From positions 32,001 to 96,000 of the forward strand of contig JAVJQW010000049.1 of NCBI GenBank assembly GCA_040218735.1: a stretch of 64,000 bases of DNA. Reading direction: 5' to 3'. Below, piece by piece: positions 28,430 through 61,676 of the stretch; the stretch's first letter is position 1, and every line of letters starts with the position of its first letter. The position numbers and the translations under genes were made by a program. The notes beneath the pieces were generated by a model. That model made no database searches, was not told the DNA's origin, and saw only the letters and a list, made by a program, of their open reading frames with translations. The stretch comes from Deltaproteobacteria bacterium. Its GTDB lineage: Bacteria > Myxococcota > Kuafuiibacteriia > Kuafuiibacteriales > Kuafuiibacteriaceae.

Positions 28430-28561
28430 CAGAGGCGATCCGATCCGCGCGCCGGATCCATCGCCGAGGAGACTCGGAGACACGACCGAACGTCGCGAAC
28501 CCTCTACGCCGGCAAGGTACACAACACCTGTGGGGCCGTCGATCCCCATTCTACCGAAAAG

Positions 28562-36552: not shown

Positions 36553-38385
36553 TCAGAGCGCGACCAGGTCGCGGCAGGTCACGGCCTCGGGCTCCGTCGC
36601 GCCGAGCCGCGTGTACAGGCAGAGCGTATGCAGACCCTCCGCGACGGATACACCGATGTCGACGGTGCCGCTCCCGGGGATCGCGGCCTGCGTGCGCCCG
36701 CCGTTGTCGAGCGCGTACTCGAACGTGAGGCCCGCCGCGCCGACGACCGTGAACGTCGCCGCGCCGACCGGTAACAACACCTGCGTGGCTTCGGCCCAGG
36801 CGGGGGCGCGGGTGAACACCGCCGGTGTGACCATGAGGCCCGCGACGGTGGGGGCGTCGATGCGTACGAACCCGTCGCCGCCGTCGCCGCCCACGCCGTC
36901 CGCGCAGCTGTAACCGAGGCCCCCGGCGCCGCCGGTGACGTCGATCGTGCCGGTGAAGGTCGCGTCGCGCGCGCGGAGGAGGATCGCGCCGCCCGCGCCG
37001 CCGCCTCCCGCCGTCGCCGCCGCGACGCAGCCGAGCCCGGTCACGAGATCCACGCCGACGCCCCCCTGCGCGGAGAGTGTGCCGGTGAGGCTGAGCGTCG
37101 AGCGTGCGCGCAGCTCGAGCACACCGCCGCCGCCGGCCCCGGTCGAGCCCTGTCCGCCGCCGCCGCCGCCGCCGCCGTGCGCCGACAGCGGGATGAGGAA
37201 CGCGTTGACGTTGGTCGCGGGGGTCCCGCCCGACGCGAAGCCGCCGCCGCCGTCACCGCCCGCCGTGCGGTTCGCGCCGCCGGCGCCGCCGCTCGCCGCG
37301 AGGAGGCCCGCGACGCCGGCGCGCCCCTCGGCGCCGCCCTTGGGCGGACACGGCGCCGCCTGGCGTGTGCCTCCGCCTTGGCATCCGGCCGGGCCCGCGG
37401 TGCGGTTGGTATGGCCGTCGACGCGCACCGTGCCGTCGATCGTGACGGGGCCGTTGGCGTCGAGCACCGCAGGGCCGTTGGTGGTGACCGTGAGGACCGC
37501 GCCGGCGGCGACGTCGATGCGCGCGTAGCGAGCGCGTGGGTTGGCGAGCGTGGTCATCGAAGTGACGTCGAGCTCGTCGCGTCCGATCAGGAGCGTCGTC
37601 TGCGTGGCCTGTGCGGCGCCGTTGGCGACCGAGATCGCGATCGCGCGCGTGTCACCCTCGTCGAGGGTGGTGTCGACGCCGACGTCGAGCACCGCGGCCG
37701 CGCGTGTGCCGGCGGCGTTTACTGCGGACGTGAGCACGTCGATCGTCGGGTCCGACACGACCACGCTCCCGCCGGGCGGGAGCAGCACGCCGGTGATCCA
37801 CACCGGCACGCCACGCGCGCCGTCTTCGAGCATCCCGGAGCCGAAGACGATCTGCGTGATCTGAGGGACCCCACCGTCGCGCAGGCCGCCGTCACGGAAG
37901 CCGGCGTCGACCTGACCGGCGTCCACCGCGCCGCCGTCGCGCGGGGTCGGGGTGCCGCCGTCACGCGGGGGGGCGTCGCCGCCGTCGCGTGGGGTGTTGA
38001 TGCCGCCGTCGCGCGGGTCTTCGCCGCCGTCGCGTGGTTCTTCGCCGCCGCCGTCGCGGGGATCTTCGCCTCCATCGCGCGGCGTATCTTCGCCGCCGTC
38101 CCGCAACGCGCCGGCATCGCGCTCCGGTCCGCCGTCGCCCGCGTCGCGCGCCGCGCCGCCGTCGCGTTCGCCGCCGTCGAGCACGCCGCCGTCGCCGGCT
38201 TCGTCGCCGCCGTCGCGGGGCGTGAGCCCGGAGTCACGGAGGTCGTCGCCCCCGTCCCGCGGTGCAGCATCACCTGCGTCGCGGTCCGCGGTGACGCCAC
38301 GGAAACGATCCCCGTCGATCGCGAGCGAGCAACCGCTCGCGAAGACGAGCGCGGATCCGAGGGCAACGAGTACAGAAGCGCGCAC
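36553..38385 (-). CDS. Lipoprotein with RDGG low-complexity repeats and Gly-rich domain
   Basis: ASGC lipobox; more than 12 RDGG/RDAG units; GGGGAGG-rich beta-roll-like region. Confidence 0.75.
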
Positions 38386-38490
38386 GGTGGAGTGCTATCG
38401 TATGCGCTTCGTGCGCCGATTCGCGACCATGGACTTGATCGAAGTTCGACCCCGTCGTACCCCCGAGGCGTCCGATCTCGGACCGAGAGC

Positions 38491-40335
38491 ATGACCGACA
38501 CGCCTGACAACACACGCGCCATCGTCATCGGTGCGGGCCCCGCCGGGCTCACCGCCGCCTACGAGATCGTCGAAGGCGGCGCGGAGGCCATCGTCTTCGA
38601 ACAAGCCCACATCGTCGGCGGGATCTCGCGAACCGATCAGTACAAGGGCTACCGGTTCGATATCGGCGGCCACCGCTTCTTCACGAAGGTGAAGATCGTC
38701 CAGGACTGGTGGATGAACATCCTGGCCGACGAGTTCCTCGTGCGGCCGCGGCTGTCGCGCATCTATTACAACGACAAGTTCTTCGACTACCCGCTCAAAC
38801 CGATGAACGCCCTTCTCGGATTGGGACCGGTCGAGGCGGTGCTCATCGGGTTTTCGTACGTCAAAGCGCAACTCTTTCCGGTGAAGCCGGAGGAGAACCT
38901 CGAGCAGTGGGTGTCGAATCGGTTCGGCAAACGCCTCTATTCGATCTTCTTCAAGACGTACACGGAGAAGGTCTGGGGCATGCCGTGCACGGAGATCGGC
39001 GCGGACTGGGCGGCGCAGCGGATCAAGAACCTCGATCTGAAGACCGCCGTGAAGAACGCGTTCCTCGGTCAGCGCGGCAGCGACGGAGAGGTCGTCACCA
39101 CGCTCATCGAAGAGTTCCACTACCCGCGGCACGGACCCGGGATGATGTGGGAACGGGTCACGGAGCTGCTCCGCGAAAAGGGCCACCCGGTGCGGATGGG
39201 CAAGCGGGTGAAGACGCTCCACCACGAGGGCGGTCGCGTCGTCGCGGTCACCGTCGTCGATCGTGAAGGCAACGCGGAGCGCCACGAGGGCACGGACTTC
39301 ATCTCGTCGATGCCGATCCGCGAGCTGCTCAACGCGTTCGATCCGCCGCCGCCGCCCGAGGTGCTCGAGGCGGCGAACAAACTCCGCTACCGCGACTTCC
39401 TCACGGTCGGGTTGATCGTCGGCAAGGAGGAGCTGTTCCCCGACAACTGGATCTACATCCACTCCGAGAAGGTGAAGGTCGGGCGCGTCCAGAACTTCAA
39501 GAACTGGAGCCCGGAGATGGTGCCCGAGGAGGGCAAGAGCTCCATCGGCCTCGAGTACTTCGTGCAGGAGAACGACGAGGTCTGGAGCGCGAAGGACGAG
39601 GACCTCATCGAGCTCGCCAAGAAGGAGATGCACACGCTCGGCTTGGTGGATGAAAAGGACGTCGAGGACGGCGTCGTCATCCGGATGCCGAAGGCGTACC
39701 CGGTCTACGATCAGGTCTACAAGGAAGCGCTGGAGGTGCTGCGCGGGTACCTCGATCCGATCGAGAACCTGCAGCTCGTGGGGCGTAACGGCCAGCACCG
39801 TTACAACAACCAGGACCACTCGATGGTCACCGCGATCTACGCGGCGCACAACGTCCTCGGTAAGCGGCGCCGCGACGTCTGGGACGTGAACGTCGAGCAG
39901 GAGTACCACGAGGAGGTCTCGGAGAACGAAGCGAAGGGCGCGACCGGTGACCGCCTGGTCCCGCAGCGCCTCGTCCTCGATCCGATGCTCGTCCTGCGGC
40001 GCGCGTTTGCGCGCTACGACCCGGTCGCGCTGGGCGGCGCGACGGGGGGCATCCTCGCCCTCGGGCTGTTCATCGCGACGGCGGCGCTGCTCATCAAGGG
40101 CGGCACCGTGGTTGGACCGCACCTGTCGCTGCTGTCGAACTATCTCCTCGGGTTCAAGGTGAGCTGGCCCGGCGCGTTCGTGGGGATGCTCGAAGCGGGT
40201 GTCATCGGGTTCGTGTTCGGCTACGTGCTGGCGTCGGTCATCAACCTCGTCGTGTCGATCCACGAGCGCGCGCTGTTGTCGCGGCTCGAACAGTCGACGG
40301 CCCTGGAATCCCTCAACCTGGAGCCCCCATCGTGA
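38491..40335 (+). CDS. FAD-dependent oxidoreductase (UGM/amine-oxidase-like) with fused C-terminal 2-TM module
   Basis: [40 protein letters not shown] and [11 protein letters not shown]. Confidence 0.9.
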
Positions 40336-45407: not shown

Positions 45408-46490
45408 ATGCGGTACCTCAGCCCTGCGTTCGCGCTCCTCATGCTCGCGGCCTGCGGCGAGCCCCAGGTCGAGGTCGACACCCTCGACGCCCCGGGCCCC
45501 TACGCCGTCGGCGTGCGCACGCTCGAAGTCGAGTACCGGCCGCCGCTCACCCTCGAGACCCGGACGCTCCAGACCGTCGTCTGGTACCCGGCGGAGGCCG
45601 CCGAAGGTGAGCGCCCGTTCTACGTGCTGCGCTCCTCGGAGGTGGCGACGATCGACGCACCGCCGCTCACGCTCGGGCCGCGCCCCGTCGTCGTCTTCTC
45701 CCACGGCCACCAGGCCTACGCGGCCGCGATGAGCCGCATCACGGAGCACCTCGCGTCGCATGGGCACGTGGTCATCGCGCCGACCCACAGCGGCAACACA
45801 TTCCTCGACGGCGACAACCGCGAGACGGACATCTACTACCTGCGCACCTACGACCTGAAGGCGGCGCTCGACCACGTCGCGGGCCTCGGCGACGGGCTGT
45901 CCGCGCTGGTCTCCGAGACGCGCGTCGTCGCGGGGCACAGCTTCGGCGCGTACACCGCGTTCGCGGTCGCGGGCGCCGAGTATCCGGTCGACGATCTCGA
46001 CGACGGCTGCGCAGCGGGCACCGTCTCCTCGGGGTACTGCTCCACGCTCGACGACGAAAAACGCGAGCTGTTCGCGGCCGGATTCGAAGACGATCGGTTC
46101 TCGGCGGTGCTCTCCTACGACCCAGGTGACTTCGGTCTGTTCGGGGAGGCGGGGGTCGCGAAGGTCGACGTCCCGACGCTGCATGTCGTCGCCGAGATCA
46201 GCGGGCATCCGGTCGGCGATCCGGCCGCGGACGACTACTGGCGCTCGTTGAATCACCCGGACGACTTCCGCTTCCTGCTGAAGGGCGGCGACCACAACGA
46301 CTTCACCGACGCGTGTGAAGCCGGCCTCGACGTCCGGTGCAGCACGCTCATCCCGGAGCGCGTGTGGAGCGCGACGCGGATCTACACCCTCGCGTTCCTC
46401 GACGGCGTCGTGCTCGGCGAGCCCGGCTACGAGGACATCCTCAGCGGCGCGGCCGAGGTGTCGTCGCTGGCGGAGGTCACGGACCGGTGA
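45408..46490 (+). CDS. Alpha/beta-hydrolase lipoprotein (PAF-AH/dienelactone-hydrolase-like)
   Basis: LAAC lipobox; PGPYAVG, VWYP, FSHG, GHSFG and GGDHNDF. Confidence 0.88.
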   Translation: MRYLSPAFALLMLAACGEPQVEVDTLDAPGPYAVGVRTLEVEYRPPLTLETRTLQTVVWYPAEAAEGERPFYVLRSSEVATIDAPPLTLGPRPVVVFSHGHQAYAAAMSRITEHLASHGHVVIAPTHSGNTFLDGDNRETDIYYLRTYDLKAALDHVAGLGDGLSALVSETRVVAGHSFGAYTAFAVAGAEYPVDDLDDGCAAGTVSSGYCSTLDDEKRELFAAGFEDDRFSAVLSYDPGDFGLFGEAGVAKVDVPTLHVVAEISGHPVGDPAADDYWRSLNHPDDFRFLLKGGDHNDFTDACEAGLDVRCSTLIPERVWSATRIYTLAFLDGVVLGEPGYEDILSGAAEVSSLAEVTDR

Positions 46491-48058
46491 AGGTGTCGAT
46501 CGGCCGGCGCGAGTTCCTCGGCTGGGCGGCGGCGACCGTCGCGGCGGGCTGCGCGGAGGGCCACGACTGCGAGCCGGACGGGGATCCGATCTTCGAGGAC
46601 GTCGCGTCCGCGCGCGCCGAGACACGCGTCGCGGCGGCGCCGTTCACGTTGGGCGTCGCGTCGGGCGACCCGCTGCACGACCGCGTGATCCTCTGGACGC
46701 GCCTCGCACCCGAGCCGCTCGAAGCGGGCGGCGGGATGATCGCGGAGGACGTCCCGGTCGGTTGGCAGGTCGCGCGCGACGAGGCGTTCACGGACATCGT
46801 CAGCCAGGGCGTCGCGACGGCGCGCGCCGAGGACGCCCACGCGGTGCACATCGACGCCGTCGGGCTCGACGCGGACAGCTGGTACTACTACCGGTTCTTC
46901 GTCGGCGAACACAAAAGCGCCGTCGGTCGCACGCGCACGTTCCCCTGCGCGGACGCGGAGCCGGCCTCGACGCGCTTCGCGTTTGCGTCGTGCCAGAAGT
47001 ACCGCGACGGCTACTACACGGCGCACCGCCACCTCGCGGAGGAGGACCTCGACTTCGTCTTGTTCCTCGGCGACTACATCTACGAGAGCGGGGGCGACTC
47101 GGTCCGCGAGGAGAACTTCGAGACTGAGGAAGCCGAAGACCTGGACGGCTACCGCCACCGCTACGCGATCTACAAACGCGACCAGGACCTGCAGGCCGCG
47201 CACGCCGCCTTCCCGTGGATCGCGGTGTGGGACGACCACGAGGTCGACAACGACTACGCCGGCGTCCTCGCGGTGGGGGACGAGGCGCCGACGGCCGAGT
47301 TCGCGGCGCGCCGCGCGGCCGCGTATCGCGCGTACTGGGAGCACATGCCGATCCGCGCCGCGGCGCCGGTGGCGGATTCGCTGCGGCTGTACCGGAGCTT
47401 TGCGTTCGGCGATCTGTTCGAGCTGTTCGTCGTCGACTCTCGTCAGCACCGCGACGACCAAGTGTGCAGCGACGACGACTTCGGGCCGGTGTGCGACGCG
47501 CGCGACGATCCGTCCCGCACGATGCTCGGGTTCGAGCAGGAGCGTTGGCTCTTCGACGGGCTCGCCTCGTCGACGCGGCGTTGGAAGTTGATCGGCAACC
47601 AGGTCGCGCTCGCGACGCTCGACTTCGACGGCACCGTCGCGAACTTCGACATCTGGGACGGCTACACCGCCGCCCGGCAGCGCCTCCTCGACGTGCTGCG
47701 CGACGTGAACAACGCCGTGGTGCTCACCGGCGACCTGCACGTCGCGGGCGTCGCGGACCTCACTGCGTTCGGGAACCTGCCCGGGGGCTCACGAGTGATC
47801 GCGGCGGAGCTGGTCGGCACGTCGATCACCTCGGGCGGCGACGAACCGGCGTCACCGATCGCGGAGCTCGTCACGAGCGAGCCGCACATCCACTACGTGA
47901 ACGCGTCGGTGCGCGGGTACATGCGGTGCACGCTGGATCGTGCGGGGCTGCGGACGGACCTGCGGGTGGTGAGCACGGTCGAGGCGCCGGAGGCGGACGT
48001 TCGCACCGAGGCTTCGTTCGTCGTCGACGACGGCATCCCCGGCGTCCGGCTGGCGTAG
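46487..48058 (+). CDS. phoD: Alkaline phosphatase D family protein (Tat-exported)
   Basis: RREFL Tat motif; GVASGDP, FASCQ, LGDYIYE, WDDHEVDND and TGDLH. Confidence 0.95.
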   Translation: MKVSIGRREFLGWAAATVAAGCAEGHDCEPDGDPIFEDVASARAETRVAAAPFTLGVASGDPLHDRVILWTRLAPEPLEAGGGMIAEDVPVGWQVARDEAFTDIVSQGVATARAEDAHAVHIDAVGLDADSWYYYRFFVGEHKSAVGRTRTFPCADAEPASTRFAFASCQKYRDGYYTAHRHLAEEDLDFVLFLGDYIYESGGDSVREENFETEEAEDLDGYRHRYAIYKRDQDLQAAHAAFPWIAVWDDHEVDNDYAGVLAVGDEAPTAEFAARRAAAYRAYWEHMPIRAAAPVADSLRLYRSFAFGDLFELFVVDSRQHRDDQVCSDDDFGPVCDARDDPSRTMLGFEQERWLFDGLASSTRRWKLIGNQVALATLDFDGTVANFDIWDGYTAARQRLLDVLRDVNNAVVLTGDLHVAGVADLTAFGNLPGGSRVIAAELVGTSITSGGDEPASPIAELVTSEPHIHYVNASVRGYMRCTLDRAGLRTDLRVVSTVEAPEADVRTEASFVVDDGIPGVRLA

Positions 48059-48060
48059 CG

Positions 48061-48495
48061 TCAGTGGCAGCCTTCGAAGATCACGTCGCCTGAGACCACC
48101 ACGCGCTGCATCGCGTTGTTCTCGTCGATGTACGAATGATCGCAGTCGATCTTTGCGTCGCCGTCGAGCGCGACGACGTCGTTGATGCGGGTGTTGGAGT
48201 CGAGGATGGTCCCGGTTGCACACGCGCCGAGGCGCGGCCCCATCTGGCGGCCGGCGGGGAAGAACGAGACCTCGGTGATCTCGGTGCCGAGGCTGTCTCG
48301 GTAGAGGCGGACGAGGCGGTCGTCGGTGGTCACGAGGTCGACGCCGTCGAAGCCCTTCGGCTCGAGCGACTCACAGCGGTCGAGCTCGGCCGTCGTGCCG
48401 TCGATGGTGAGGGTGCCTTCGACGGACGATCCGCAGGCGGTCGCGAGTGCGATGAACGAGAGGAAGGCGGGTGCGGTCCACTTCATGGACCTCAT
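48061..48495 (-). CDS. Hypothetical lipoprotein
   Basis: ATAC lipobox; four further Cys residues. Confidence 0.65.
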   Translation of the reverse strand: MRSMKWTAPAFLSFIALATACGSSVEGTLTIDGTTAELDRCESLEPKGFDGVDLVTTDDRLVRLYRDSLGTEITEVSFFPAGRQMGPRLGACATGTILDSNTRINDVVALDGDAKIDCDHSYIDENNAMQRVVVSGDVIFEGCH

Positions 48496-48550
48496 CGTCG
48501 GGCAACGAAGCGTCGGTCGCGAACGCGTGCGAGCGGGCACGCGACGGCGC

Positions 48551-49405
48551 TCACGACTCCAGGCGTTTGGCCTTCGCGGCTTCGAGCGTGGACTCCTCGA
48601 TCTTGAACAACCGCGCCGCCGTCCGCCACGCGATGTTCTCGAGCTGCTCCTGTACGAACTCGAGCTCGTGCATGAACTTGAGATAGGGCTTCATCGCGAC
48701 GAGCGGCCAGTCGCTGCCGTACATGAGCTGTTTTCCGGGGTCGCCCATGTACGTGATCATCTCTTTGAGCCGCATCGCGACGTAGCGTTCGAACGCGTAG
48801 TCGAATTCACCGAGCGTGAGCCCCGAGATGTCGGCGAACACGTTGTCGTTCTTGTAGAGGACCTCGGCGGCGTCCTGGAACCACGGGTTGCCGAGGTGGC
48901 ACATCACGAACTTCACGTCGGGGTAGTCGACCGCGACGTCGTCGACCAGGAGGGGGTGCGCCATGCGGACCTTCGCGGTCTTCGCGTAGGTGTCGCCGGT
49001 GTGGATCATGACCGGCACGTCGTACTTGGCGGCGATGCGGAAGACACTCTCCAGCGACGGGTCGTTGATCGGGTAGTGGTCGTAGCCGGGGTAGAGCTTG
49101 ATGCCGCGGACGATGCCGTCGCGGATGCGCTCCTCCATCGAGAAGAGGTCGGTGCGTTCGTCACCGCGCCACCTGAGCCCCTCGACGACGGTGCTGCGCG
49201 GGTCCTCATGGAGGTGGTCGACGAGGTCCTCGACGGCGGGACGATCCACGTCGACGCGGTAGGAGGTGATCACGACGACGTGGTCGACGCCGGTGTCCCT
49301 CATCTTTTCGTAGAGGTCCGCGACGTTCTCCTGCGTCGGGCGGCGGGTCGACTCGTGGTAATTGTTGAGGTGCACGTGCGAGTCGATCAGGAAACGCGAG
49401 CTCAT
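48551..49405 (-). CDS. Amidohydrolase family (amidohydro_2) protein
   Basis: IDSHVH, GIKLYP, MIHTG, CHLG, DISG and YGSDWP. Confidence 0.92.
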   Translation of the reverse strand: MSSRFLIDSHVHLNNYHESTRRPTQENVADLYEKMRDTGVDHVVVITSYRVDVDRPAVEDLVDHLHEDPRSTVVEGLRWRGDERTDLFSMEERIRDGIVRGIKLYPGYDHYPINDPSLESVFRIAAKYDVPVMIHTGDTYAKTAKVRMAHPLLVDDVAVDYPDVKFVMCHLGNPWFQDAAEVLYKNDNVFADISGLTLGEFDYAFERYVAMRLKEMITYMGDPGKQLMYGSDWPLVAMKPYLKFMHELEFVQEQLENIAWRTAARLFKIEESTLEAAKAKRLES

Positions 49406-49428
49406 GCGGGGAGCCTACCGGACGCACG

Positions 49429-50422
49429 GTGGCCGCTCCACGTCGTGACGGGTTTCCTCGGGAGCGGGAAGACCACGCTGATCGCGCACCTCCTCGAATC
49501 CCCCGCGGCGTCGGGCACCGCGGTGATCGTGAACGAGGTCGGCGACGTGTCGATCGACGACCGCCTCGTGGCGCACGTGACCGAGGACGTGCAGGTGCTC
49601 GCGTCGGGCTGTCTGTGCTGCACGCTCCGCGACGATCTCGCGGGGGCGATCGAGCAGCTGCACACCGCGTCCGTAGAGGCGGGGCGGGCGATAAGCCGTG
49701 TGGTCTTGGAGACGAGCGGGATCGCGGACCCCGCGCCCATCGTGCACTCCGCCGCGCGGGATCCGCGGCTCGCCGCGCGGCTGCGCGTCGCGGGGGTCGT
49801 CGCGGTCGTCGATGCCTCGCGCGCGTTGACGTTGCTCGACACGCAGCCGGAGGTCGCGCGTCAGATCGACATCGCGGACCACGTCGTCCTCACGAAGGAG
49901 GACGTCGCGCCCGAGGGGGCCGTCGAAGCGATCGAGGCGCTGCTCACCGAACGTTACCCGGGGCGGGGGATCGAGCGGGGCCCCGCGGCGCTGCTCGTCG
50001 GTGCGCCGACGTTGACCAGCCGCGCCGAGGCGGCCGGCTGGCTCGCGCCGCTGCACGACGGCGACGCGGCCGTGGACCGACGGACGATCGATCTGCCGAG
50101 CCCGGTGTGCCTCGACGCGCTCGCGCTGTGGCACCGCATGGTGACGAGCCTCGACGGCCTTTCGCTGCTCCGCATCAAGGGGATCGTAGAGGCCGACGGC
50201 GCGCGCTGGGTGATGCAGTCGGCGCAGCACGCGGTGTTCGAGCCGCGTCCGCTGGCGGGGGCGCCCGAAGCGTGGTCGGGCTCGCGCCTCGTGGTGTTGA
50301 GCCGCGGGATGCCGAAGCCCGCGCTCGATCGGCTCGAGGAGGCCGCCGTCCTCGCCGCGCGCGGTACAAGGCGTCGACCCGTTCGGCAATCGGCTGGAAT
50401 TACTGGCTCCAGACCTCGGTGA
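49429..50422 (+). CDS. CobW/COG0523 metallochaperone GTPase (start anomalous)
   Basis: TGFLGSGKTT, NEVG, GCLCC, ETSGIADP, TKED and LRIKG. Confidence 0.88.
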
Positions 50423-50477
50423 CACTTCGGGCGAATGACCGACCGACCGATGGCCGCACCGATCCGGTGTGGTATTC

Positions 50478-52079
50478 ATGTCCCACATGGACCGTCGCCC
50501 CTGGGCCCTCGCGCTCGCCGTCCTCGCGGCGTGTTCGCAGAAGGCCGAAGACCCGCCCATCGTGCTCACCGAGCTCCCGGACGTGGCGCCGGCCGAGGCG
50601 CACCTGACGCGCCTCACGGCCACGCAGTACCGCGCCGCGATCACGGACGTGCTCGGCGAAGGCCTCGCGCTGCCGCCGCAGCTGGAGCCGGATCTGCCGT
50701 CGTCCGGGCTGCTGTCGGTCGGGGCGTCGGAGTCGACGATCTCCGCGTGGGGGGTCGAGCAGTACGAAAACGGCGCCTTCTCGATCGCCGCGCAGATCAT
50801 GGACGACGAGACGCGTCGCGCCGCGCTCGTGCCGTGCACGCCGCAGGGCACCGTCGACGCCGCGTGCACGACGGCGTTCGTGGAGCAGGTCGGCCGTCGT
50901 CTGTGGCGTCGCCCGCTCGAGACCGATGAGCGCGACGCGCTGGTCGCCGTCGCGAACGAAGCGGCGATGACCCTCGACGACTTCTACGCGGGGCTGGAGT
51001 TCGCGCTCGCGGGGCTGCTCCAGTCGCCGAACTTCCTCTTCCGCGTCGAGCTCGGCGAGAGCGGGCGCTACGACGACTGGGAGATGGCGTCGCGGCTGTC
51101 GTTCTTCCTGTGGAACACGGTGCCGGACGAGGCGCTCCTCGACGCCGCCGCCGCGGGTGCGTTGAGCACCGCCGAGGGGCTCGCCGCGCAGGCGCGCCGG
51201 ATGATCGACGACGAGCGCGCGCGCGACGGCGTGCGGCAGTTCTTCACGGACATGTACGAGCTGTACGAGCTCGACGCGCTCGCCAAGGACCCGACGCTGT
51301 TCGTTCACTTTTCGACGGACGTCGGCGGGTTCGCGCGGGAGGAGACGTTGCGGCTGGTCGAGTACATCGTCTTCGAGAAGGACGCCGACTACCGCGAGCT
51401 GATCACCACGAACGAGACGTTCGTGAACCGGCACCTCGCTTCGATCTACAGCGTCCCCGCCGCTTCGCGGGAGGGCTTCGCGAAGGTGACGCTGCCGCGC
51501 TCCTCGGGCCGGCGCGGGGTGCTCGGGCACCTGTCGTTCCTCGGCTTGCAGTCGCACCCGGCGGCGTCGTCCGCGGTGCTGCGCGGGTTGTTCGTGCGGA
51601 AGGTGCTCCTGTGCCAGGAGATTCCGCCGCCCCCCGTGGACGTGAACACGGCGCTCCCGGAGCCGACCGAGGTCGCGCCGACGCTGCGCGAGCGGAACAA
51701 GATCCACCTCGAGAACCCGAGCTGCGCGCAGTGCCACAACTTCATGGATCCGATCGGGCTGGGGTTCGAGAACTTCGACGGCCTCGGTCGGTGGCGTGAG
51801 AAGGACAACGGCGCGCTGATCGACGCGAGCGGCGACCTCGACGGCAAGCCGTTCACGGACGCGTGGGAGATGGCCGAGGTCGTGCGTGAGCACGAAAACG
51901 TCGGCATCTGCCTGACGCGTACGCTGTACCGCTACGCGACGTCCCACGTGGAGCAGGCGGACGAGGGGCAGCTGATCGTGGCGCTGTCCAAGCGGTTCGA
52001 GGAGCAGGGCTACCGGATCAAGGCGCTCCTGTTCGACATCGTGACGAGCCCCGGGTTCGCGAAGGTCGAGGTGCAGTGA
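50478..52079 (+). CDS. DUF1592/DUF1595/DUF1588/DUF1585 domain lipoprotein (c-type haem motif)
   Basis: RLTATQY, LQSPNFLFR, ASRLSFFLW..PD, RGLFVR..LLC, CAQCH..MDPIG.GFENFD. Confidence 0.92.
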   Translation: MSHMDRRPWALALAVLAACSQKAEDPPIVLTELPDVAPAEAHLTRLTATQYRAAITDVLGEGLALPPQLEPDLPSSGLLSVGASESTISAWGVEQYENGAFSIAAQIMDDETRRAALVPCTPQGTVDAACTTAFVEQVGRRLWRRPLETDERDALVAVANEAAMTLDDFYAGLEFALAGLLQSPNFLFRVELGESGRYDDWEMASRLSFFLWNTVPDEALLDAAAAGALSTAEGLAAQARRMIDDERARDGVRQFFTDMYELYELDALAKDPTLFVHFSTDVGGFAREETLRLVEYIVFEKDADYRELITTNETFVNRHLASIYSVPAASREGFAKVTLPRSSGRRGVLGHLSFLGLQSHPAASSAVLRGLFVRKVLLCQEIPPPPVDVNTALPEPTEVAPTLRERNKIHLENPSCAQCHNFMDPIGLGFENFDGLGRWREKDNGALIDASGDLDGKPFTDAWEMAEVVREHENVGICLTRTLYRYATSHVEQADEGQLIVALSKRFEEQGYRIKALLFDIVTSPGFAKVEVQ

Positions 52080-53395
52080 TGAAGCTGTCCAGGCGCACGT
52101 TGCTCAAAGGCGCGCTCGGCGGCGCGACGGTGACCGTGGGGTTGCCGGCGCTGGAGTGCATGTTGAACACCCACGGCACCGCGCTCGCGAACGGGACGCT
52201 GCCGAAGCGGTTCGGGATCTGGTTCTGGGGGAACGGTGTGCTCCCCACGCAGTGGGTGCCGACGGGCGAGGGCACGGAGTGGACGCTGTCGGATCAGCTC
52301 TCGCCGCTCGCGGACGTGAAGGACGACATCTCCGTCGTCAGCGGGATGTCGGTGAAGACCGGCAACGCGATCCCGCACGGCTCGGGCCCAGGCGGGATCT
52401 TCTCGGGCGCGCCGCTGATCCTGCAGGGCGGGGAGGAGTACACGTTCTCCACGCCGAGCATCGACCAGTTCATCGCGCGGGAGATCGGCGGCGAGACGCG
52501 CTTCCGTTCCCTGGAGCTCGGCGCGAAGCCGGGGCCGGGGCTGTCGTTCAACGGACCGAACAGCAAGAACCCGCCGGAGTCCTCGCCGCGCCGGTTCTTC
52601 GACCGCATCTTCGGCGGCAACTTCACGCTGCCGGGTGACGACCCGACGCCGGACCCGCGGCTGAGGCTGCGCCGGAGCGTGCTGGACGCGGTGATGGGCG
52701 ACGTCGGTCGTTTGAACGCGCGGCTGTCGATGCACGACAAGCAGCGCCTCGATCAGCACCTCACGGGCATTCGCGATCTCGAGCGGCGCCTGCAGCGCCT
52801 CGAAGAGAACCCCCCTTCGCTCGAATCGTGTGCGCTCCCGGATCGGCCGGCGGAGACGTTCCCGGACGTCGACGGGCGGCCGCCGATGCCCGAGATCGCG
52901 CGGGCGATGGCGGACGTGTTGGCGTTGGCGCTCGCGTGTGACCAGACGCGGGTCTTCTCGTTCTGGTTCACGTACCCGGTGAACAACGTGCTGTTCCCCG
53001 GGATGCCCGCGGGGCACCACCGCCTGACCCACGACGAGCCGGGGGAGCAGCCGATGGTGAACGACATCGTCAAGCTGATCACCACGGAGCTCGCGTACTT
53101 CGTCGCGCGCCTCAAGAGCATCCCGGAGGGCGACGCCACGCTGCTCGACAGCTGCGCGGTGCTCGCGACGTCCGACACCTCTTGGGGCCGAAACCACACG
53201 CTCGACGACTACCCGATCGTCATCGCGGGCAACGCGTGCGGCGCGCTGAAGAAGGGCGTGCACTACCGCTCGCCGTCGAACGAGAACGCCACGATGGTGT
53301 TGTTGTCGCTGGTGCGCGCGATGGGGATTCCGGCGGCGGAGTACGGCGCGGAGGCCGGGCACGTCGACCGCAGCCTGGGGGCGATCGAAGCATGA
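52076..53395 (+). CDS. DUF1552 domain protein (Tat substrate)
   Basis: LSRRTLLKG, LPALE, SIDQ, SVLD, ALACDQTRV and HHRLTH. Confidence 0.92.
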   Translation: MMKLSRRTLLKGALGGATVTVGLPALECMLNTHGTALANGTLPKRFGIWFWGNGVLPTQWVPTGEGTEWTLSDQLSPLADVKDDISVVSGMSVKTGNAIPHGSGPGGIFSGAPLILQGGEEYTFSTPSIDQFIAREIGGETRFRSLELGAKPGPGLSFNGPNSKNPPESSPRRFFDRIFGGNFTLPGDDPTPDPRLRLRRSVLDAVMGDVGRLNARLSMHDKQRLDQHLTGIRDLERRLQRLEENPPSLESCALPDRPAETFPDVDGRPPMPEIARAMADVLALALACDQTRVFSFWFTYPVNNVLFPGMPAGHHRLTHDEPGEQPMVNDIVKLITTELAYFVARLKSIPEGDATLLDSCAVLATSDTSWGRNHTLDDYPIVIAGNACGALKKGVHYRSPSNENATMVLLSLVRAMGIPAAEYGAEAGHVDRSLGAIEA

Positions 53396-54976: not shown

Positions 54977-55089
54977 GTTCAGATCAAGGCTTGCGTGGGG
55001 CTAGGCTGAGGCCGGTCGCGAGAGCGACCGGTCCGAGGCCTGTGCCTAGGGCCTCCGCGTAGCGGAGGTGGCGTGAAAGGCCTAGCGCT

Positions 55090-56367
55090 TCACGCGGGCG
55101 GGTTGAGCGCGTCGATCGAACGCTCGGTGCGGTCGAGGTCGCCGCCGAAGGTGCGCATCAGCGCGCGGTGCACGTCCTGACGCTGGTCGGTGCAGATGAA
55201 GCCGCGCTCCGCCGTACGGCCGCGCGACAGGTAACGGCTGACCGCCGCGTACGTCGTGCGGATGGCCGTGGCCTCCGCCTGGTTGCCCTGGGCCTCCTGA
55301 GCCGACGCGCGGCGCTCGACGTCGCGCGGGCCGTTGATGCTGCGGCGACCGCCGTCGTAGAGGAGCTCCATCGCGTAGGCGACCTTCGACGCAAACGCCG
55401 CTTCGCTGCGGAAGTTGGCGGACGTGTCGATGTCGTTGATGCGCTGCATCCGGGTGCCGGTCAGGAGCGCGTCGGCGTTCGAGCTGTCGGAGCGCGCCGA
55501 AGCGATCTCGTCACGCGTCAGGTAGCCCTTGTCGCCGGCGCGGCGCTCGTAGATGCCGTTGAGGTCCTTCTCGAGCTTCGCGAGGTTCGCCGCCGTCGGG
55601 ACGAACGCGAGGACGCCGTTCGACGTGGACTGGTTGCGGTGCGCGCCGTAGCGGGCGGCCTGCAGGAGCACCTGGACGATCGAGTCGGAGATGCCGTTCG
55701 CGGACATCGTGCGCTCGAGCGAGCCGGGCTGGCCGCCCTCGGACGCGAAGGTCACGACCTCACGCATCTGACGCGTCCAGCGGGTCTCGCTGTTCGAGGC
55801 GGGCTCGAGCGTGGTCGCCTTCGCGAGGAGCGCGACGATCGCCTTGTTGGCCGAGCGGATGTCGTCCAGCGTCTTGGCGCCGGCCGGAATCGACGGGGCC
55901 ACCGGAGCGGTCGGCGCGGTCGGGGCGGCGGGGGCGCTCGGCGCGGTCTGGCCGGCGTTGCTGCTGGGGCGGCTCGGCTTGCTCGAGGAGCCCGGGGCGC
56001 CGTCGGTCGCGTGGAAGCGGCCCATCTGCTGCAGGAAGTAGTCGCGCGACTTCGTGGACGTGAAGTCGACCGCGCGCTCCTTCTTGCCCGTGACCTCCAT
56101 GGACACGTTCTGGCGCATGTCGTCCGCCTTCACGTAGAGCGGGCGGAGCGCGGCGGCCTCGGCCTTCGACCAGCGGCGGGCGCCGGGCGTGACGGCGCGG
56201 TCACGGAGCTGCGGGGCGCGGACGAGCTCGTCCGTGTCCTTCTCGCTCCAGCCGCCGCGGAGGTTGTTGTACGTGAGTGTCGCGACGCTCTTGTCCGCGC
56301 GAGCGCTCTCGAACTGGGGGTTCGCGGCGCCGATTTGAGTCTTGACGGTGGTCGTGCTGAAAGCCAT
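55090..56367 (-). CDS. Hypothetical protein, two domains joined by a Pro/Ala linker
   Basis: Strong GAGGAG RBS, strong codon bias, own terminator; no Sec signal. Confidence 0.85.
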   Translation of the reverse strand: MAFSTTTVKTQIGAANPQFESARADKSVATLTYNNLRGGWSEKDTDELVRAPQLRDRAVTPGARRWSKAEAAALRPLYVKADDMRQNVSMEVTGKKERAVDFTSTKSRDYFLQQMGRFHATDGAPGSSSKPSRPSSNAGQTAPSAPAAPTAPTAPVAPSIPAGAKTLDDIRSANKAIVALLAKATTLEPASNSETRWTRQMREVVTFASEGGQPGSLERTMSANGISDSIVQVLLQAARYGAHRNQSTSNGVLAFVPTAANLAKLEKDLNGIYERRAGDKGYLTRDEIASARSDSSNADALLTGTRMQRINDIDTSANFRSEAAFASKVAYAMELLYDGGRRSINGPRDVERRASAQEAQGNQAEATAIRTTYAAVSRYLSRGRTAERGFICTDQRQDVHRALMRTFGGDLDRTERSIDALNPPA

Positions 56368-56447
56368 TTCTTCGTCTCCTCAGGGCGATTGAGCCCTGTT
56401 CCTCCTGGCACTTGAGCAGACGGTGCGTCCTCGGCGTGCCTGATAGC

Positions 56448-56586
56448 GTTCGGTGCAATGTTCGGTGCAACTGTCGGTAGGAGACTTACTTGCTCCCACC
56501 TTGCAGGGATATGTATCGCGGGGTGAGACAATTTGTTGTGTGACAGAACACGTCACACAGGGTCCGTGTTCAGGAAGTCACAGGAA
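56448..56586. promoter_or_regulatory. Divergent control region with direct and inverted repeats
   Basis: GTTCGGTGCAA x2 (12-bp period); TGTGTGAC-N7-GTCACACA (56537-56559); CAGGAA x2. Confidence 0.55.
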
Positions 56587-56665
56587 ACGCTCGGGTTTCC
56601 TCCACCAAAAAAATTTGGGCGCCCTACGGACGAACCCCGCAGCGGTTCCGCGCGATAATGTAGGC

Positions 56666-59600
56666 ATGCCGCGCCCGGGCCCCAACGCGCCGCTCTCGTG
56701 GCAGCGGCCGACCGTCCCGACGCGGTCGGAGGCCGAGGCGGTCACGTCCGGGGTCGAGACCGAGCTCCTCGAGCGCGTCGACGAGCTCAAGGAGCGCATC
56801 GGGACGGGGCAGGAGATGGGCGGGGAGGCGGGTGGCCCCGACGTCAACCTGCGCCGTGACGCGCTGTCGGCGCTCCGCGCGAAGTACGACGCGCAGGCGC
56901 TCGAAGCGCGGCTCCCCAAGCGGGGCCGCCGGGTGTTCACGAACCTCGTCAAGGACCTCGCGTGGATCGACGCCGCGGAGCGCCAGTCTTTGACCGACGG
57001 CAAGCCGTTCGACTTCTCGTGGTCGAAGAACCCGATGAGCACCGCCTCCGTGCTCACCCAACTCGCGGCCAAGCGCGCGACGTTCGCGGCCGAGCAGACG
57101 GCGGCCATCCAAGCCAACCCCGCGCTCCCCTACGATGCGAGCAACGACTCGCTCCTCGGGCCGCTCCAGGTCGACGACAAAAATCTCGCGGGGCAGATCC
57201 TCGCCGACACCCTCATTCAGTTCCGAGCCAAGCGCCGCAGCGAAGCGCTGATGGACCAGTCCCTCACGCCCGACCCGGAGCGCCGCTCGCAGGGGCGCAT
57301 CGGATCGTCGGGCACGGTCAGCGCGTTCGAGCAGCGCCTCGCCGCCCAGTCGATCGACTCGGGGCGCGGCCTCGCCCCGCAGCGGCTGTACGCGCTGGGG
57401 CGGCTGACGATCGGCGGGGCGGTCGCCGGCTCCGTCAACGGGATCTACAAGGGGCGCAACTCGGTCGGATCGTTGCCGGGGTTCATGGGGCGCGGCGTAG
57501 CGTACGACCCCGTCGCCGAGGGGGCGGGCTTTTCGGCCAACTTCCACGACGCCATCCACAAGAGCTACTCCGCGAACACCCCGGCGGCGGTCGAGCACTA
57601 CGTCAAACACCGCGCGTTCACGGGCGGCGACGTCGAGGACCGCCCGTTCATCATGCGCGACCTCGTCGATGCGGCGCTCGAGCGCGACGTCGACAAGGCG
57701 CGTTTGATCCTGGACGGCGTCGAGCGCCGCTTCGGCTACACGGTGCCGGGCCTCGACGGCATCACGAAACACGAGGACCTGAAGAAGGCGATCGCGAAGC
57801 ACTTCAAGAAGAACACGGATCTCCCCGGCCTCAAGACCGCGAAGCTCGTCGGCGTCCTCAAGGCGCTCTCGCTGATCTCGACGACGTACCAGGCCATCGT
57901 GCTCGACCGGCCCACGGTGCGTGAGCTGCGTGGGTCGATGTTCTTCGCGAAGAGCGCCGAGCTCGACGTCGCGCGGCTCGTCGCCGCGATGGAGAAGGGC
58001 GACACCACGGCGCAGATCGAAGCGGTCGGGCGCGCGCGCAAAGCGCTGAAGAAGGCGTTCTTCGAGCTCGACGACGGCTACGAACGGCAGATGCTGTGGC
58101 GCCTCGATCGTCGCATCGAGCTGCTCGCGACGGAGCTGATCGGCACCTCCGTCGACCGCGTGCTCTCGGGGGAGGCGGACGTCGGCGAGGCCCTCGTCGC
58201 GCTCCGCTCCGCGCTCCGCAACGTCAACGCGAGCGGCTACGACGCGCTCCGCGGACGCAAGAAGACGGCGCCGGTCGAGGACCTGTCGAAGCTCGAGAAG
58301 GAGGTCGACCGCCTGATCGGCTCCGGCGAGACAACCGTCGAGGACCTCCGGGCGCTGATGACGAAGGTCTTTGCGTCGGCGACCGAAGTGACGGACGCGA
58401 TGTCGATCTACTTCGCGCGCCGGGAGTCGGCGATTCGGTTCTCGCCCATCGACGTCGAGCTCGACCCGGACTTCACGGGCAACCTCGTGAAGGAGTCGCC
58501 GCTGCAGCACCTCCTCAGCCTGTCGAACCACCTGCGCACGCTCGACATGAAGACGGACATCAGCGCCGAGCAGATCCGCTTCGTCGGCGGGATGCGGGTG
58601 CTGAACTCCACGGGGCCGCGCGTCTACAAACGCATCCTCGTCGCGAAGACCCCTGAGGCGCTCAAGCGCTACGCGCCGACCGTCGACGACCTGTGCGTCG
58701 TGCGCTCCGCCGACGAGAAGAACCTCGTGTACGACGGCGGCCTCGTGCTCGACACCAAGGACGCCGGACCGGGCCTCGCGCACGCCGCGGTGTTCGCGAA
58801 GGGGCACGGCATCAACGCGATCGCGCTGCCGAACCTCGACGAGGCGATCGAGACGTTCTTCGACAAGGCGAAGGGCGACGGACCGCACCTCGGCTTCTAC
58901 GTCGACCCGCGCGCCGAGAGCTTCGTGATCAAGCCGCTCTCCGCTGCGGTGAACGAGGGTCTGGTGAAGCCGGCGCAGATCGACACACTTCGCCCGGGGT
59001 TCAACCTGGAGATCGACGTGTTCGACGTGAACGACGCCGCCGAGCGCGTGCGGATCGCGGAGCACACGCTGCACCGCTCCGACCAGCACGAGACCCGGAG
59101 CATCGAGCTCATCGCGCCGGACCTCGACGACGCGCTCGACCTCGGCGGACCCGCGTCGTTTTCGAAGCTCGGCGCTTTCTCGATCGATCAGGTGCGGCAG
59201 GTGAGCGGGGAGAAGGGCGCGGTGCTCGTGGACCTCGCGAAGTCGGAGCGTCTGAAGGCGCTCGGCGTGAAGGTCCCGGACGGCGGCTCGGTCCCGCCGT
59301 TCTCCGTGGCTTCGTTGCTGCTCGAGGCGAAGGTCGGATCGAAGTCGCTCCTCGAGCTGTGGGACGCGGCGCCGGCGCGCGCTGGGTTCGACGATCCGAA
59401 GAAACGCCCGACGCAGCTGAAGAACCTGAAGAAGACCACCGCGACCGCGCTGAAGGGCGCGTTGCTCGACGGCAACAACCCCACCGCGCTGGGGCAACGC
59501 ATGCTCGCCCAGCTCTCGGACGCCCTGGATCTGAAGGACACCGACGACTGGATCTTCCGTTCGAGCTTCACCGCGGAGGACCGCCCCAACAAGAGCGGCG

Positions 59601-60130
59601 CCGGTCAGTACGACTCCGTGCTCGTCGCCGCGAAGCCGAAGCGCACCCTCGCCAAGCGCCGCCTGGAGGCGATCGCCGACGTGATCGCTTCGGCCTGGAA
59701 CCCCTCCGCGGTCGAGAGCAACCTCGCCGCGAACGTTCCGTTGGATCTCGTGTGGCCGAGCATCGTCGTGCAGCACGCGATCGACGACCCAACGGTGAGC
59801 GGCGTCGGTGTGTCGCGCGGCGCGACGGGGGGCTTCGGGGAGGTGAGCTACCAGGCCACCCCCGAGTTCGGCGGCGGCGTGGCCGGCGGTGACTGTGAAG
59901 AGGGCACCCTCGGAGCGCGGGACCAACGTGTCCTGACCGGCTTCGGCGGGCAGGACACGTCACTCCTCACGCCGAAGCAGCAGGGGCTGCTGCGCGACGC
60001 GATCCTCGCCATCGAGGAGGACTTCCACGAACGCATCGAGCCGGGGCAGGGACACGCGGTCGACGTGGAGTGGGCGTTCGTGAAGGACCAGCTCTACATC
60101 CTACAGGCGCGCGTCATCACCGGCGTGTAA
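56666..60130 (+). CDS. PEP-utilising-family dikinase with glucan-water-dikinase-like domain order
   Basis: His-swivel GPGLAHAAVFAKGHGI precedes the C-terminal ATP-grasp domain (GEKG, VPDG, RSSFTAED, GAGQYDS, VVQ, SGV, DVEWA, LYILQAR). Confidence 0.85.
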   Translation: MPRPGPNAPLSWQRPTVPTRSEAEAVTSGVETELLERVDELKERIGTGQEMGGEAGGPDVNLRRDALSALRAKYDAQALEARLPKRGRRVFTNLVKDLAWIDAAERQSLTDGKPFDFSWSKNPMSTASVLTQLAAKRATFAAEQTAAIQANPALPYDASNDSLLGPLQVDDKNLAGQILADTLIQFRAKRRSEALMDQSLTPDPERRSQGRIGSSGTVSAFEQRLAAQSIDSGRGLAPQRLYALGRLTIGGAVAGSVNGIYKGRNSVGSLPGFMGRGVAYDPVAEGAGFSANFHDAIHKSYSANTPAAVEHYVKHRAFTGGDVEDRPFIMRDLVDAALERDVDKARLILDGVERRFGYTVPGLDGITKHEDLKKAIAKHFKKNTDLPGLKTAKLVGVLKALSLISTTYQAIVLDRPTVRELRGSMFFAKSAELDVARLVAAMEKGDTTAQIEAVGRARKALKKAFFELDDGYERQMLWRLDRRIELLATELIGTSVDRVLSGEADVGEALVALRSALRNVNASGYDALRGRKKTAPVEDLSKLEKEVDRLIGSGETTVEDLRALMTKVFASATEVTDAMSIYFARRESAIRFSPIDVELDPDFTGNLVKESPLQHLLSLSNHLRTLDMKTDISAEQIRFVGGMRVLNSTGPRVYKRILVAKTPEALKRYAPTVDDLCVVRSADEKNLVYDGGLVLDTKDAGPGLAHAAVFAKGHGINAIALPNLDEAIETFFDKAKGDGPHLGFYVDPRAESFVIKPLSAAVNEGLVKPAQIDTLRPGFNLEIDVFDVNDAAERVRIAEHTLHRSDQHETRSIELIAPDLDDALDLGGPASFSKLGAFSIDQVRQVSGEKGAVLVDLAKSERLKALGVKVPDGGSVPPFSVASLLLEAKVGSKSLLELWDAAPARAGFDDPKKRPTQLKNLKKTTATALKGALLDGNNPTALGQRMLAQLSDALDLKDTDDWIFRSSFTAEDRPNKSGAGQYDSVLVAAKPKRTLAKRRLEAIADVIASAWNPSAVESNLAANVPLDLVWPSIVVQHAIDDPTVSGVGVSRGATGGFGEVSYQATPEFGGGVAGGDCEEGTLGARDQRVLTGFGGQDTSLLTPKQQGLLRDAILAIEEDFHERIEPGQGHAVDVEWAFVKDQLYILQARVITGV

Positions 60131-60139
60131 GCTCGGTGG

Positions 60140-61222
60140 GTGACCGAGCCGATCAACCTGCTGGAGCTGGAAGCGCTCGCGAAGAAGAAGCTCGCGCAGA
60201 ACGCGTTCGACTACTACGTCAGCGGCGCGCACGACGAGATCACCCTGCGCAACAACCGCGCGGCGTTCGATCGAATCGAGCTGATGTACCGCGTGCTCGT
60301 CGACGTCTCGACGCGTTCATTGGCGACGACCGCGTTGGGCCTGCCGATCGCGTTCCCGGTGATTGTCGCGCCGACGGCGTTCCACCGGATGGCGTGCGCC
60401 GACGGTGAGCTCGCGACCGCGCGCGCCGCGTCGAACGCGGGCACGGTCATGATCCTCAGCTCGCTGTCGAACACCCGCGTCGAGGAGGTCTGCGCCGAAG
60501 CCGATGGCCCGGTGTTCTTCCAGCAGTACATCTACAGGGACCGCGGCGCGACGAAGGCGCTGATGGAGCGCGCGGAGGCGGCGGGGGCGAAGGCGTTCGT
60601 CATCACCGTCGACGCCCCGAAGCTCGGCACCCGCGAGCGCGACGTGCGCAATCGCTTCCACCTCCCCGAGGGGCTCTCCGTCGAGAACATGGTCGCGGAG
60701 GGCTACGGCGAGGTCGCGGCCCCGCCGAACGACTCGGGGCTGTCGGCGTACTTCGCGTCGCTGATCGATCCGTCGTTTTCGTGGAAGGACCTCGACTGGC
60801 TGCGCTCGGTGACGTCGCTGCCGATCGTCCTCAAGGGGATCGTCCGCGAGGACGACGCAAAGCGCGCCGCCGAAGCGGGTGTGCAGGGCATCGTCGTCTC
60901 GAACCACGGCGGCCGACAGCTCGACACCTCCATCGCGACCATCGACGCGCTCCCCGGCGTGGTCGACGCCGTCGAGGGACGCGTGGAGGTCTTCATGGAC
61001 GGTGGCGTCCGCCGCGGTACGGACGTCCTCAAGGCGCTCGCCTTCGGCGCGCGCGCGGTGTTGATCGGGCGACCGATCCTCTGGGGCCTCGGCTACGCCG
61101 GTGAGGCGGGCGCGTCGCGCGCGCTCGAGATGCTGAAGGAGGAGCTCGACCTCGCGATGATGCTCGCCGGCGCGCCGACGGTCGCCGACGTCACCCGCGA
61201 TCTCATCCGCGTTTCTTCGTGA
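60140..61222 (+). CDS. FMN-dependent alpha-hydroxy-acid oxidase/dehydrogenase
   Basis: APTA, TVDAP..G.RE, LKGI, VSNHGGRQLD and DGGVRRGTD. Confidence 0.95.
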   Translation: MTEPINLLELEALAKKKLAQNAFDYYVSGAHDEITLRNNRAAFDRIELMYRVLVDVSTRSLATTALGLPIAFPVIVAPTAFHRMACADGELATARAASNAGTVMILSSLSNTRVEEVCAEADGPVFFQQYIYRDRGATKALMERAEAAGAKAFVITVDAPKLGTRERDVRNRFHLPEGLSVENMVAEGYGEVAAPPNDSGLSAYFASLIDPSFSWKDLDWLRSVTSLPIVLKGIVREDDAKRAAEAGVQGIVVSNHGGRQLDTSIATIDALPGVVDAVEGRVEVFMDGGVRRGTDVLKALAFGARAVLIGRPILWGLGYAGEAGASRALEMLKEELDLAMMLAGAPTVADVTRDLIRVSS

Positions 61223-61676
61223 ACGCGGCGAGGCCCTTCATCGCCTGACCGCGCACCTTGTTCTGTACGATCGGGCTCCAGCCGAGGAGCACACCCATGG
61301 GGCCGAGCGCCATGCGCGTCCACGCCCACATGTCGAACGTGTCGCGGTGCACCTTGATGAGGCCGTCCTCGATCTCGAAGCGCGCGTCGATCTTGTTGTG
61401 CACGAAGCGCCCGGTCGCGGAGAACGTGTACTTCGCCTCCCAGTGCGCGGTGACGATGCGTTCGCTCGCAACGACGTCGGAGTGGGTGACGACGAGATCC
61501 TTCCCGCGCTCGACGAGCATCCGCCACATGTTGCGAGCGCCCGCACCGTCGAGGTTCGTGAAGACCGGGTCCGAGAACTTCGCGTCGTCGCGGTAACACG
61601 ACGCCATCGTCTCGGCGTCCTTGTTCGCAAACGCTTCGTAGAATTTGTGGATCAGCTGCGCGTGGTCCGACGACAT
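61203..61676 (-). CDS. NTF2/SnoaL-like protein
   Basis: FYEAF..KD, FSDPVF, MWRML, HWEAKYTFSATGR.VHN and HRDTFD. Confidence 0.88.
   Translation of the reverse strand: MSSDHAQLIHKFYEAFANKDAETMASCYRDDAKFSDPVFTNLDGAGARNMWRMLVERGKDLVVTHSDVVASERIVTAHWEAKYTFSATGRFVHNKIDARFEIEDGLIKVHRDTFDMWAWTRMALGPMGVLLGWSPIVQNKVRGQAMKGLAAFTKKRG

Follow-up and report, generated by a model that had tools for sequence, protein, structure and literature searches.

Does a myxobacterial genome encode an enzyme built like the glucan, water dikinases (GWD and PWD), which are treated as eukaryotic hallmarks of starch metabolism? The question is raised by a gene at positions 56666-60130 of a 64,000-nucleotide stretch, here called the window, of contig JAVJQW010000049.1 from a Deltaproteobacteria bacterium assembly (GCA_040218735.1; Myxococcota in GTDB). 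A first-pass annotation made from the sequence alone had described the product as a bacterial protein of GWD/PWD-like architecture, and proposed a glucan or other macromolecule dikinase, possibly a predation effector, with relevance to the origin of starch phosphorylation. Our favoured reading, held with moderate confidence, is of an active histidine-swivel dikinase that depends on ATP and works in the cytoplasm. It would be a distant relative of the GWD-type enzymes by way of a second bacterial family, the Omnitrophota-type family, and would act on an acceptor other than starch.

The stretch 56666-60130 is a genuine and conserved myxobacterial gene. The open frame on the forward strand runs from 56453 to 60130, and the start was set at the ATG at 56666, giving 1154 amino acids (aa), because P0002, the nearest homolog at 94% identity, has the same length and aligns from residue 1. 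G+C at third codon positions in the frame is 0.91, matching the other genes of the window, whose overall G+C content is about 69%.

Pfam recognized a single domain in the product, the ATP-grasp nucleotide domain PPDK_N (PF01326), at aa 848-1152 with an expect value (E) of 4.3e-20. Matches to NCBIfam were only partial, to phosphoenolpyruvate (PEP) synthase and rifampin phosphotransferase models, at no more than 43 bits against cut-offs of 500-1350. In an AlphaFold2 model built from 16 family sequences, with a predicted local distance difference test score (pLDDT) of 81, the chain consists exclusively of helices up to residue 624, is mixed alpha/beta at 640-776, carries a beta insert at 780-816 and forms the ATP-grasp from about residue 836. 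Structure comparison identifies aa 635-776 as a swivel fold; the Pfam model GWD1_pHisD (PF22973) does not match at E<=1, and His706 of this domain aligns with the His of GWD-type proteins. His706, whose CAC codon the first-pass annotation had picked as the phospho-His, does not vary in either family alignment (16 of 16 and 35 of 35 members), and nor do the ATP-site residues listed in Table 1; the larger alignment reaches down to 27% identity. Residues E222, R224, R264, H298, S302, R458, D481, R586 and K609 are invariant in the helical domain at aa 216-625. At E<=1, Pfam found no PEP-utilizers mobile domain, no PEP-utilizers_C barrel (PF02896) and no carbohydrate-binding module (CBM) or starch-binding domain (CBM45, Ig_N_CWD1 (PF23166) or CBM20) in the protein, and no signal peptide or other secretion signal was seen by eye. 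The annotated anatomy, namely a helical N region, a phospho-His swivel and a C-terminal ATP-grasp in a protein without PEP/pyruvate barrel, CBM or signal peptide, is borne out by these results. With a PPDK_N-type ATP-grasp that conserves Lys, Arg, Glu and Gln, and with a mobile swivel phospho-His domain, the protein belongs to the PEP-utilising, or histidine-swivel dikinase, superfamily.

The order substrate, His, nucleotide had been one ground for likening the protein to GWD/PWD. This order is present but not restricted to GWD/PWD: in the probably bacterial proteins P0086, P0148, P0093, P0134 and P0146, too, a clear PEP-utilizers domain precedes a PPDK_N at the C-terminus. The His-then-ATP order occurs in several unrelated-looking families.

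The true GWD sequences used for comparison carry Pfam Ig_N_CWD1, GWD1_pHisD and PPDK_N, one of them is named alpha-glucan, water dikinase at its source, and 15 of them were aligned as a profile; two true GWD, P0171 and P0175, do match PF23166. We regard the profile as valid because it matched the crystal structure of the StGWD1 central domain (PDB 9ha9) at E 2.5e-88. The link to the Myxococcota family runs through the Omnitrophota-type family (P0064 and P0164-P0168), bacterial proteins of 1657-4256 aa with GWD1_pHisD and PPDK_N, two of which are source-named Candidatus Omnitrophota. By hhalign, the alignment of this intermediate family with true GWD has a probability of 100% (E 1.2e-51); it starts at the conserved central-domain motif HNN..P.D (GWD residue 645) and extends to the C-terminus. 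The Myxococcota family aligned with the Omnitrophota-type family at 98.9% (E 2.2e-17, query 445-1150) and with the merged Omnitrophota+GWD profile at 99.0% (E 4.7e-18, query 434-1150).

Because a strong ATP-grasp match could drag an alignment through the helices, the profiles were cut by domain. The helical part of the family (aa 1-632) aligned with the merged Omnitrophota+GWD helical part at 72.4% (E 3.3e-5, 316 columns, query 216-625), and with the Omnitrophota helical part alone at 56.8% (E 1.1e-4). The positive control, Omnitrophota helical part against GWD helical part, reached just 42% (E 2.6e-4) despite certain homology, while the negative control, aa 400-632 against 22 RPH/PPS-like proteins of about 850-920 aa, gave 0.7%. 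Helical-only comparisons are therefore underpowered, and values of 57-72% are those expected of a true distant relative. The His domain, at 72% against Omnitrophota+GWD and 79% against the RPH/PPS-like proteins, is equally close to both groups. For the ATP-grasp, the canonical bacterial PPS/RPH type is the nearer match (99.9%, E 2.5e-35), ahead of the GWD/Omnitrophota type (98.7%, E 2.6e-16). Judged by these profiles, homology to the GWD-type central domain is very probable for aa ~434-625 and probable for aa ~216-434. The N-terminal ~215 residues are particular to the family; they lie outside every significant hhalign alignment and no relative of them was detected. On the profile evidence, homology to GWD is real but indirect, passing through the bacterial Omnitrophota-type family. 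Of the two bacterial families, the Omnitrophota-type one stands nearer to GWD.

Three motifs that the first-pass annotation had likened to the GWD/PWD central domain fall at positions which GWD-type motifs occupy in the profile alignments. Two of them, DFTGNLVKESPL and ARKALKK..RQMLWRLD, are covered by the 99% alignment to the Omnitrophota+GWD profile, DFTGNLVKESPL corresponding to the GWD helix F-x-E-E-L-I-R-G, and FHDAIHKSYS brings the invariant His298 onto the His of the GWD-type HNN..P.D motif in the helical-only alignment (72%). By motif position, the GWD helix was equated with E900/E901/R904 of StGWD1; the invariant K609 aligns with GWD R915, which was equated with R904 in the same way. 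According to the StGWD1 structure report, E900, E901 and R904 face the carrier His and are proposed to assist the transfer (PMC13553574).

Direct comparisons with GWD were weak. When PDB sequences (9ha9 and 9qvi included) were searched with the family profile, 9ha9 was not matched at E<=10, and the search returned only the ATP domains of PEP synthase and RPH, plus three chance-level rows at E > 0.5. Direct hhalign comparison of the family with the true GWD profile gave 16-37% for short pieces, which is not significant; the piece at aa 562-733 placed His706 on the invariant GWD His. The helical N region alone gave 0.1% against the true GWD profile or its helical part, and single-sequence comparison with P0171 and P0175 was limited to an ATP-site motif of 29-40 residues. 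These comparisons give no support for a homology between the N region and the GWD central domain that can be seen without intermediates. A hidden Markov model (HMM) of the family also failed to retrieve the true GWD ATP domain at E<=1e-3, and an ATP-grasp tree with GWD was dropped since its alignment would be unreliable. A separate model of aa 1-632 (pLDDT 86, predicted template modelling score 0.87) found no solved relative by Foldseek at E<=0.001; 9ha9 was not listed there, in libraries which end on 8 April 2026 and may omit it, the StGWD1 structure paper being dated August 2026 (PMC13553574). The ESM Atlas gave no usable match to aa 1-630. Caution is also called for by Gly605 (codon 58478-58480), which the window protein shares with its three nearest relatives; its position aligns with the proposed catalytic residue E900 of StGWD1, and the other 12 of 16 aligned members of subfamily I, the branch of the family that includes the window gene, have Asp or Glu there. 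The annotated likeness to GWD can be kept for aa 434-1150 (99%) and, with less weight, for aa 216-625 (72%) by way of the Omnitrophota intermediates, but not at the level of direct profile comparison.

A total of 15 full-length homologs (1086-1180 aa, 41-94% identity) came from a word-indexed search, 46 clusters at E<=1e-30 from a profile search of 1.84 billion representatives, and 25 loci from a scan of GTDB species genomes. The metagenome-assembled genomes with these loci are labelled Myxococcota, Myxococcales/Myxococcaceae, Archangium or Deltaproteobacteria, save three with the labels Bdellovibrionales, Pseudomonadota and 'bacterium', the last being locus L001 at 74% identity. With a profile of the N region, 26 of 401 sampled Myxococcota genomes matched at E<=1e-10 (17 of 316 among high-quality genomes), and the distribution is patchy by taxonomic family, for example 7/11 in one, 5/172 in another and 0/67 in a third. 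Besides the window gene, the host genome (11.6 Mb, 70 contigs) holds one further copy, a 1197-aa paralog of 31% identity, which represents subfamily II; most loci of 27-33% identity in the genome scan are orthologs of this paralog. A third, more divergent form of about 1030 aa, also at 27-33% identity, coexists with the subfamily-II copy in the same genomes (L044, 8102-11203, plus strand, and a 1028-aa frame in a second genome). A literature search found no description of this family, and none of the papers in the library searched combined dikinase, myxobacteria and GWD.

A reaction path can be proposed from this architecture. The folds and the order of the domains, the unchanging carrier His and ATP-site residues and the conservation of the family are observed, whereas catalysis, dikinase stoichiometry and the site and nature of the acceptor are inferred. 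The C-terminal ATP-grasp would bind Mg-ATP, and His706 on the swivel domain would take the beta-phosphate, yielding AMP and inorganic phosphate, as the presumed dikinase stoichiometry implies. The swivel domain would then turn to the helical domain and hand the phosphate to a hydroxyl of the acceptor. The acceptor would rest on the final helices of the helical domain (K609, D481, R458 and R586), perhaps with the region of His298. Starch granules would not be the acceptor. We lean, with low confidence, to a small or lipid-like molecule, because SCP2 domains, which are encoded beside the subfamily-II genes, are known as lipid carriers, and because the characterised non-GWD enzymes of the superfamily are reported to act on rifampin, phenols and hydroxyphenylethanones. 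A polar acceptor would also agree with the numerous Arg, Asp and Glu residues that are invariant in the N region. An acceptor of some other kind is less likely, a soluble glycan less likely again, and a protein the least likely.

Gene context gives no hint of glucans in either subfamily. Among the window ORFs (open reading frames) there are no genes for glycogen or starch, nor were glycogen-metabolism genes found in the related loci examined. The divergently transcribed 425-aa gene has homologs upstream of the dikinase in L002 and L003, and is thus present in 3 of 3 subfamily-I loci with upstream sequence, the window included. Its product has a Pro/Ala-rich linker and a conserved C-terminal domain of ~260 aa belonging to no known family; the L003 homolog has an EF-hand-like motif, at best 20 bits and under the Pfam cut-off of 25-26 bits. 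Linkage of the dikinase with the dehydrogenase gene downstream was found only in the window and in the 74%-identical locus L001. A scan of 55000-61500 returned no promoter-like sites and a single terminator-like site, on the minus strand, a number below shuffle expectation.

In subfamily II, an SCP2 gene (106-137 aa) lies directly downstream of the dikinase in eight loci (L039 of the host, L005, L007, L010, L014, L017, L020 and L021), and a protein of ~445-560 aa is encoded near it in nine (L005, L006, L007, L014, L016, L017, L018, L019 and L021). The latter protein is fused to the N-terminus of the dikinase in P0022, a 2062-aa family member with a 900-aa N-terminal extension, which provides a gene-fusion link. 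The fused part shares 40-51% identity over ~400-500 residues with the eight complete neighbours, and 39% over 185 residues with a contig-end fragment. Cys342, His388 and Asp405 are invariant in this neighbour protein. That it is a transglutaminase-like enzyme is no more than a possibility; only one of eight members weakly matches Transglut_core (E 0.038), and the match to PDB 2e6j (HYDIN) at E 0.51 is at chance level.

Other observations in the window concern a 926-aa protein (26843-29623, plus strand) with an E1_dh domain only at aa 621-917 and a 600-aa N-terminal region without family, and a 1052-aa protein (37177-40335, plus strand) whose amine-oxidase domain is confined to the C-terminal half. 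A gene pair of DUF1592/DUF1588/DUF1595/DUF1585 (PSD/PSCyt) and DUF1552 type with a 4 bp overlap is found at 50469-53395 on the plus strand, and upstream of it are a PhoD phosphatase gene (46337-48058) and a CobW-domain gene (48326-50422).

Table 1. Coordinates of the dikinase gene, its domains and associated genes. Positions refer to the window unless a locus is named.
Feature	Position	Strand	Basis and remarks
Whole gene, GWD-order histidine-swivel dikinase, 1154 aa, subfamily I of the Myxococcota family	56666..60130	+	ORF, start, homologs
Helical N-terminal module, family-specific, aa 1-215	56666..57310	+	AlphaFold2 helices; invariant R63, D97, D181, Q185, R187
Helical domain, aa 216-625, probable homolog of GWD-type central (acceptor) domain	57311..58540	+	hhalign
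Phospho-histidine swivel domain, aa 635-776	58568..58993	+	
CAC codon of His706, predicted phosphoryl-carrier histidine	58781..58783	+	Sequence, invariance, alignment to GWD-type pHis His
Beta-hairpin insert and linker, aa 777-835	58994..59170	+	AlphaFold2 strands 780-788, 794-802, 810-816; invariant G778, N780
PPDK_N-type ATP-grasp nucleotide domain, aa 836-1154	59171..60127	+	Invariant K850, R965, E971, D972, E1135, Q1147, R1149
425-aa gene, divergently transcribed, conserved subfamily-I neighbour	55090..56367	-	No Pfam family
FMN (flavin mononucleotide)-dependent alpha-hydroxy-acid dehydrogenase gene	60140..61222	+	PF01070, E 1.4e-135; starts 10 bp past dikinase stop
Host paralog, subfamily II, 1197 aa	contig 42, L039 8063-11656	+	
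SCP2 gene of host paralog, 107 aa	L039 11670-11993	+	13 bp after paralog

Among the alternatives, a true alpha-glucan dikinase, which phosphorylates cytoplasmic glycogen or maltodextrin, fares best and is still unlikely. It would not need a CBM, since bacterial glycogen is soluble, and it can draw on the transitive homology of the helical, His and ATP domains with GWD. The GWD motif with the proposed catalytic Arg is conserved in the form of K609 (PMC13553574), and according to one review the agents of prokaryotic glycogen phosphorylation are unknown (PMC13666283). However, direct similarity to the GWD central domain is undetectable, no CBM45, Ig-like or other carbohydrate-binding domain is found by Pfam, and the window and the related loci examined have no glycogen-metabolism genes. 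A presence in just 26 of 401 sampled Myxococcota genomes also counts against it, and neighbours consisting of SCP2 and proteins without assigned function give no sign of glucans. The annotated function as a glucan or macromolecule dikinase is accordingly unsupported.

A little less probable is a protein-directed kinase or regulator, in which the swivel His phosphorylates, or is controlled by, a partner such as the 425-aa neighbour. The constant presence of that neighbour in subfamily I, and the adjacency and fusion of the ~445-560-aa protein in subfamily II, would suit such a role, and a PPDK-derived regulatory kinase, VadK of M. tuberculosis, has been described (PMC13400623). Gene neighbourhood argues only weakly for it, however, and the helical acceptor-side domain resembles those of enzymes with non-protein acceptors. 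The predation effector suggested in the first-pass annotation, which would be secreted or injected and would phosphorylate a macromolecule of the prey, is very improbable. The large genome of the Myxococcota host and the N-terminal extension of P0022 may be cited in its favour, but the protein has no secretion signal visible by eye. A catalytically dead scaffold or pseudoenzyme is just as improbable: both Pfam models miss the His domain and Gly605 replaces an acidic residue common in the family, but neither the carrier His nor any core ATP-grasp residue varies among 35 sequences, some as low as 27% in identity.

A bacterial and apparently cytoplasmic family with the GWD order and a probably related acceptor-side domain becomes available as an experimentally tractable relative. 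It could serve in studies of phosphate transfer from a swivel His to a helical acceptor domain, and of the origin of GWD. The family adds an uncharacterised class to the His-swivel dikinases, and once its acceptor is identified, myxobacteria would gain a new phosphorylation reaction; as long as no substrate can be named, the value stays limited. The previously proposed bearing on how starch phosphorylation arose is plausible, but rests more on the closer Omnitrophota-type family than on the window gene. In eukaryotes, GWD is stated to correlate perfectly with semi-crystalline glucans (bioRxiv 10.64898/2026.09.25.754361). We consider it improbable that the Myxococcota and Omnitrophota-type families are the prokaryotic stock of the eukaryotic GWD/PWD central-His-ATP module, as an enzyme phosphorylating a bacterial alpha-glucan such as glycogen. 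If true, it would supply the glucan-phosphorylating machinery of prokaryotes, of which none is known according to the review cited above (PMC13666283).

PEP synthase and PPDK have the ATP-grasp, the swivel His domain and the ATP-site motifs in common with it, but the window protein is without their PEP/pyruvate TIM barrel and has the nucleotide domain last, not first. In the two-component dikinase HpeHI, HpeI (PDB 9GOJ; PMC12167813) is a stand-alone ATP subunit, whereas the window protein is a single chain with a different acceptor-side domain. In RPH-Lm (PDB 5HV1; PMC4844700) and the phenolic/polyphenol dikinases, the linear order is permuted to ATP-grasp, helical substrate domain and His. 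The helical region of the family gave 0.4-0.7% by hhalign against RPH/PPS-like proteins, and 5hv1 was aligned through its ATP domain only; an N region derived from a permuted RPH-type substrate domain is unsupported.

The Omnitrophota-type proteins are the closest detectable relatives outside the Myxococcota family, and resemble the window protein in the helical module, the His domain, the ATP-grasp and their bacterial origin. One of them (P0164) has no CBM45 by Pfam. Unlike the window protein, they carry Pfam GWD1_pHisD, are far larger and have other N-terminal regions (HEAT repeats in P0166). GWD1 and PWD (EC 2.7.9.4 and 2.7.9.5) show the same order, in which a helical acceptor-side domain (in StGWD1 the all-helical central domain, aa 483-926, PDB 9HA9) is followed by the phospho-His domain and a C-terminal PPDK_N ATP-grasp. 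Their carrier His aligns with His706, and both sides share the linker-helix motif F-x-[DE]-x-L-[VI]-[KR], in which K609 takes the place of StGWD1 R904. GWD1 and PWD possess CBM45/Ig-like starch-binding domains, which the window protein does not have; the latter is bacterial and probably cytoplasmic, and is distinguished by its unique 215-aa N-terminal module and by an ATP-grasp with the canonical early RSSxxxED motif.

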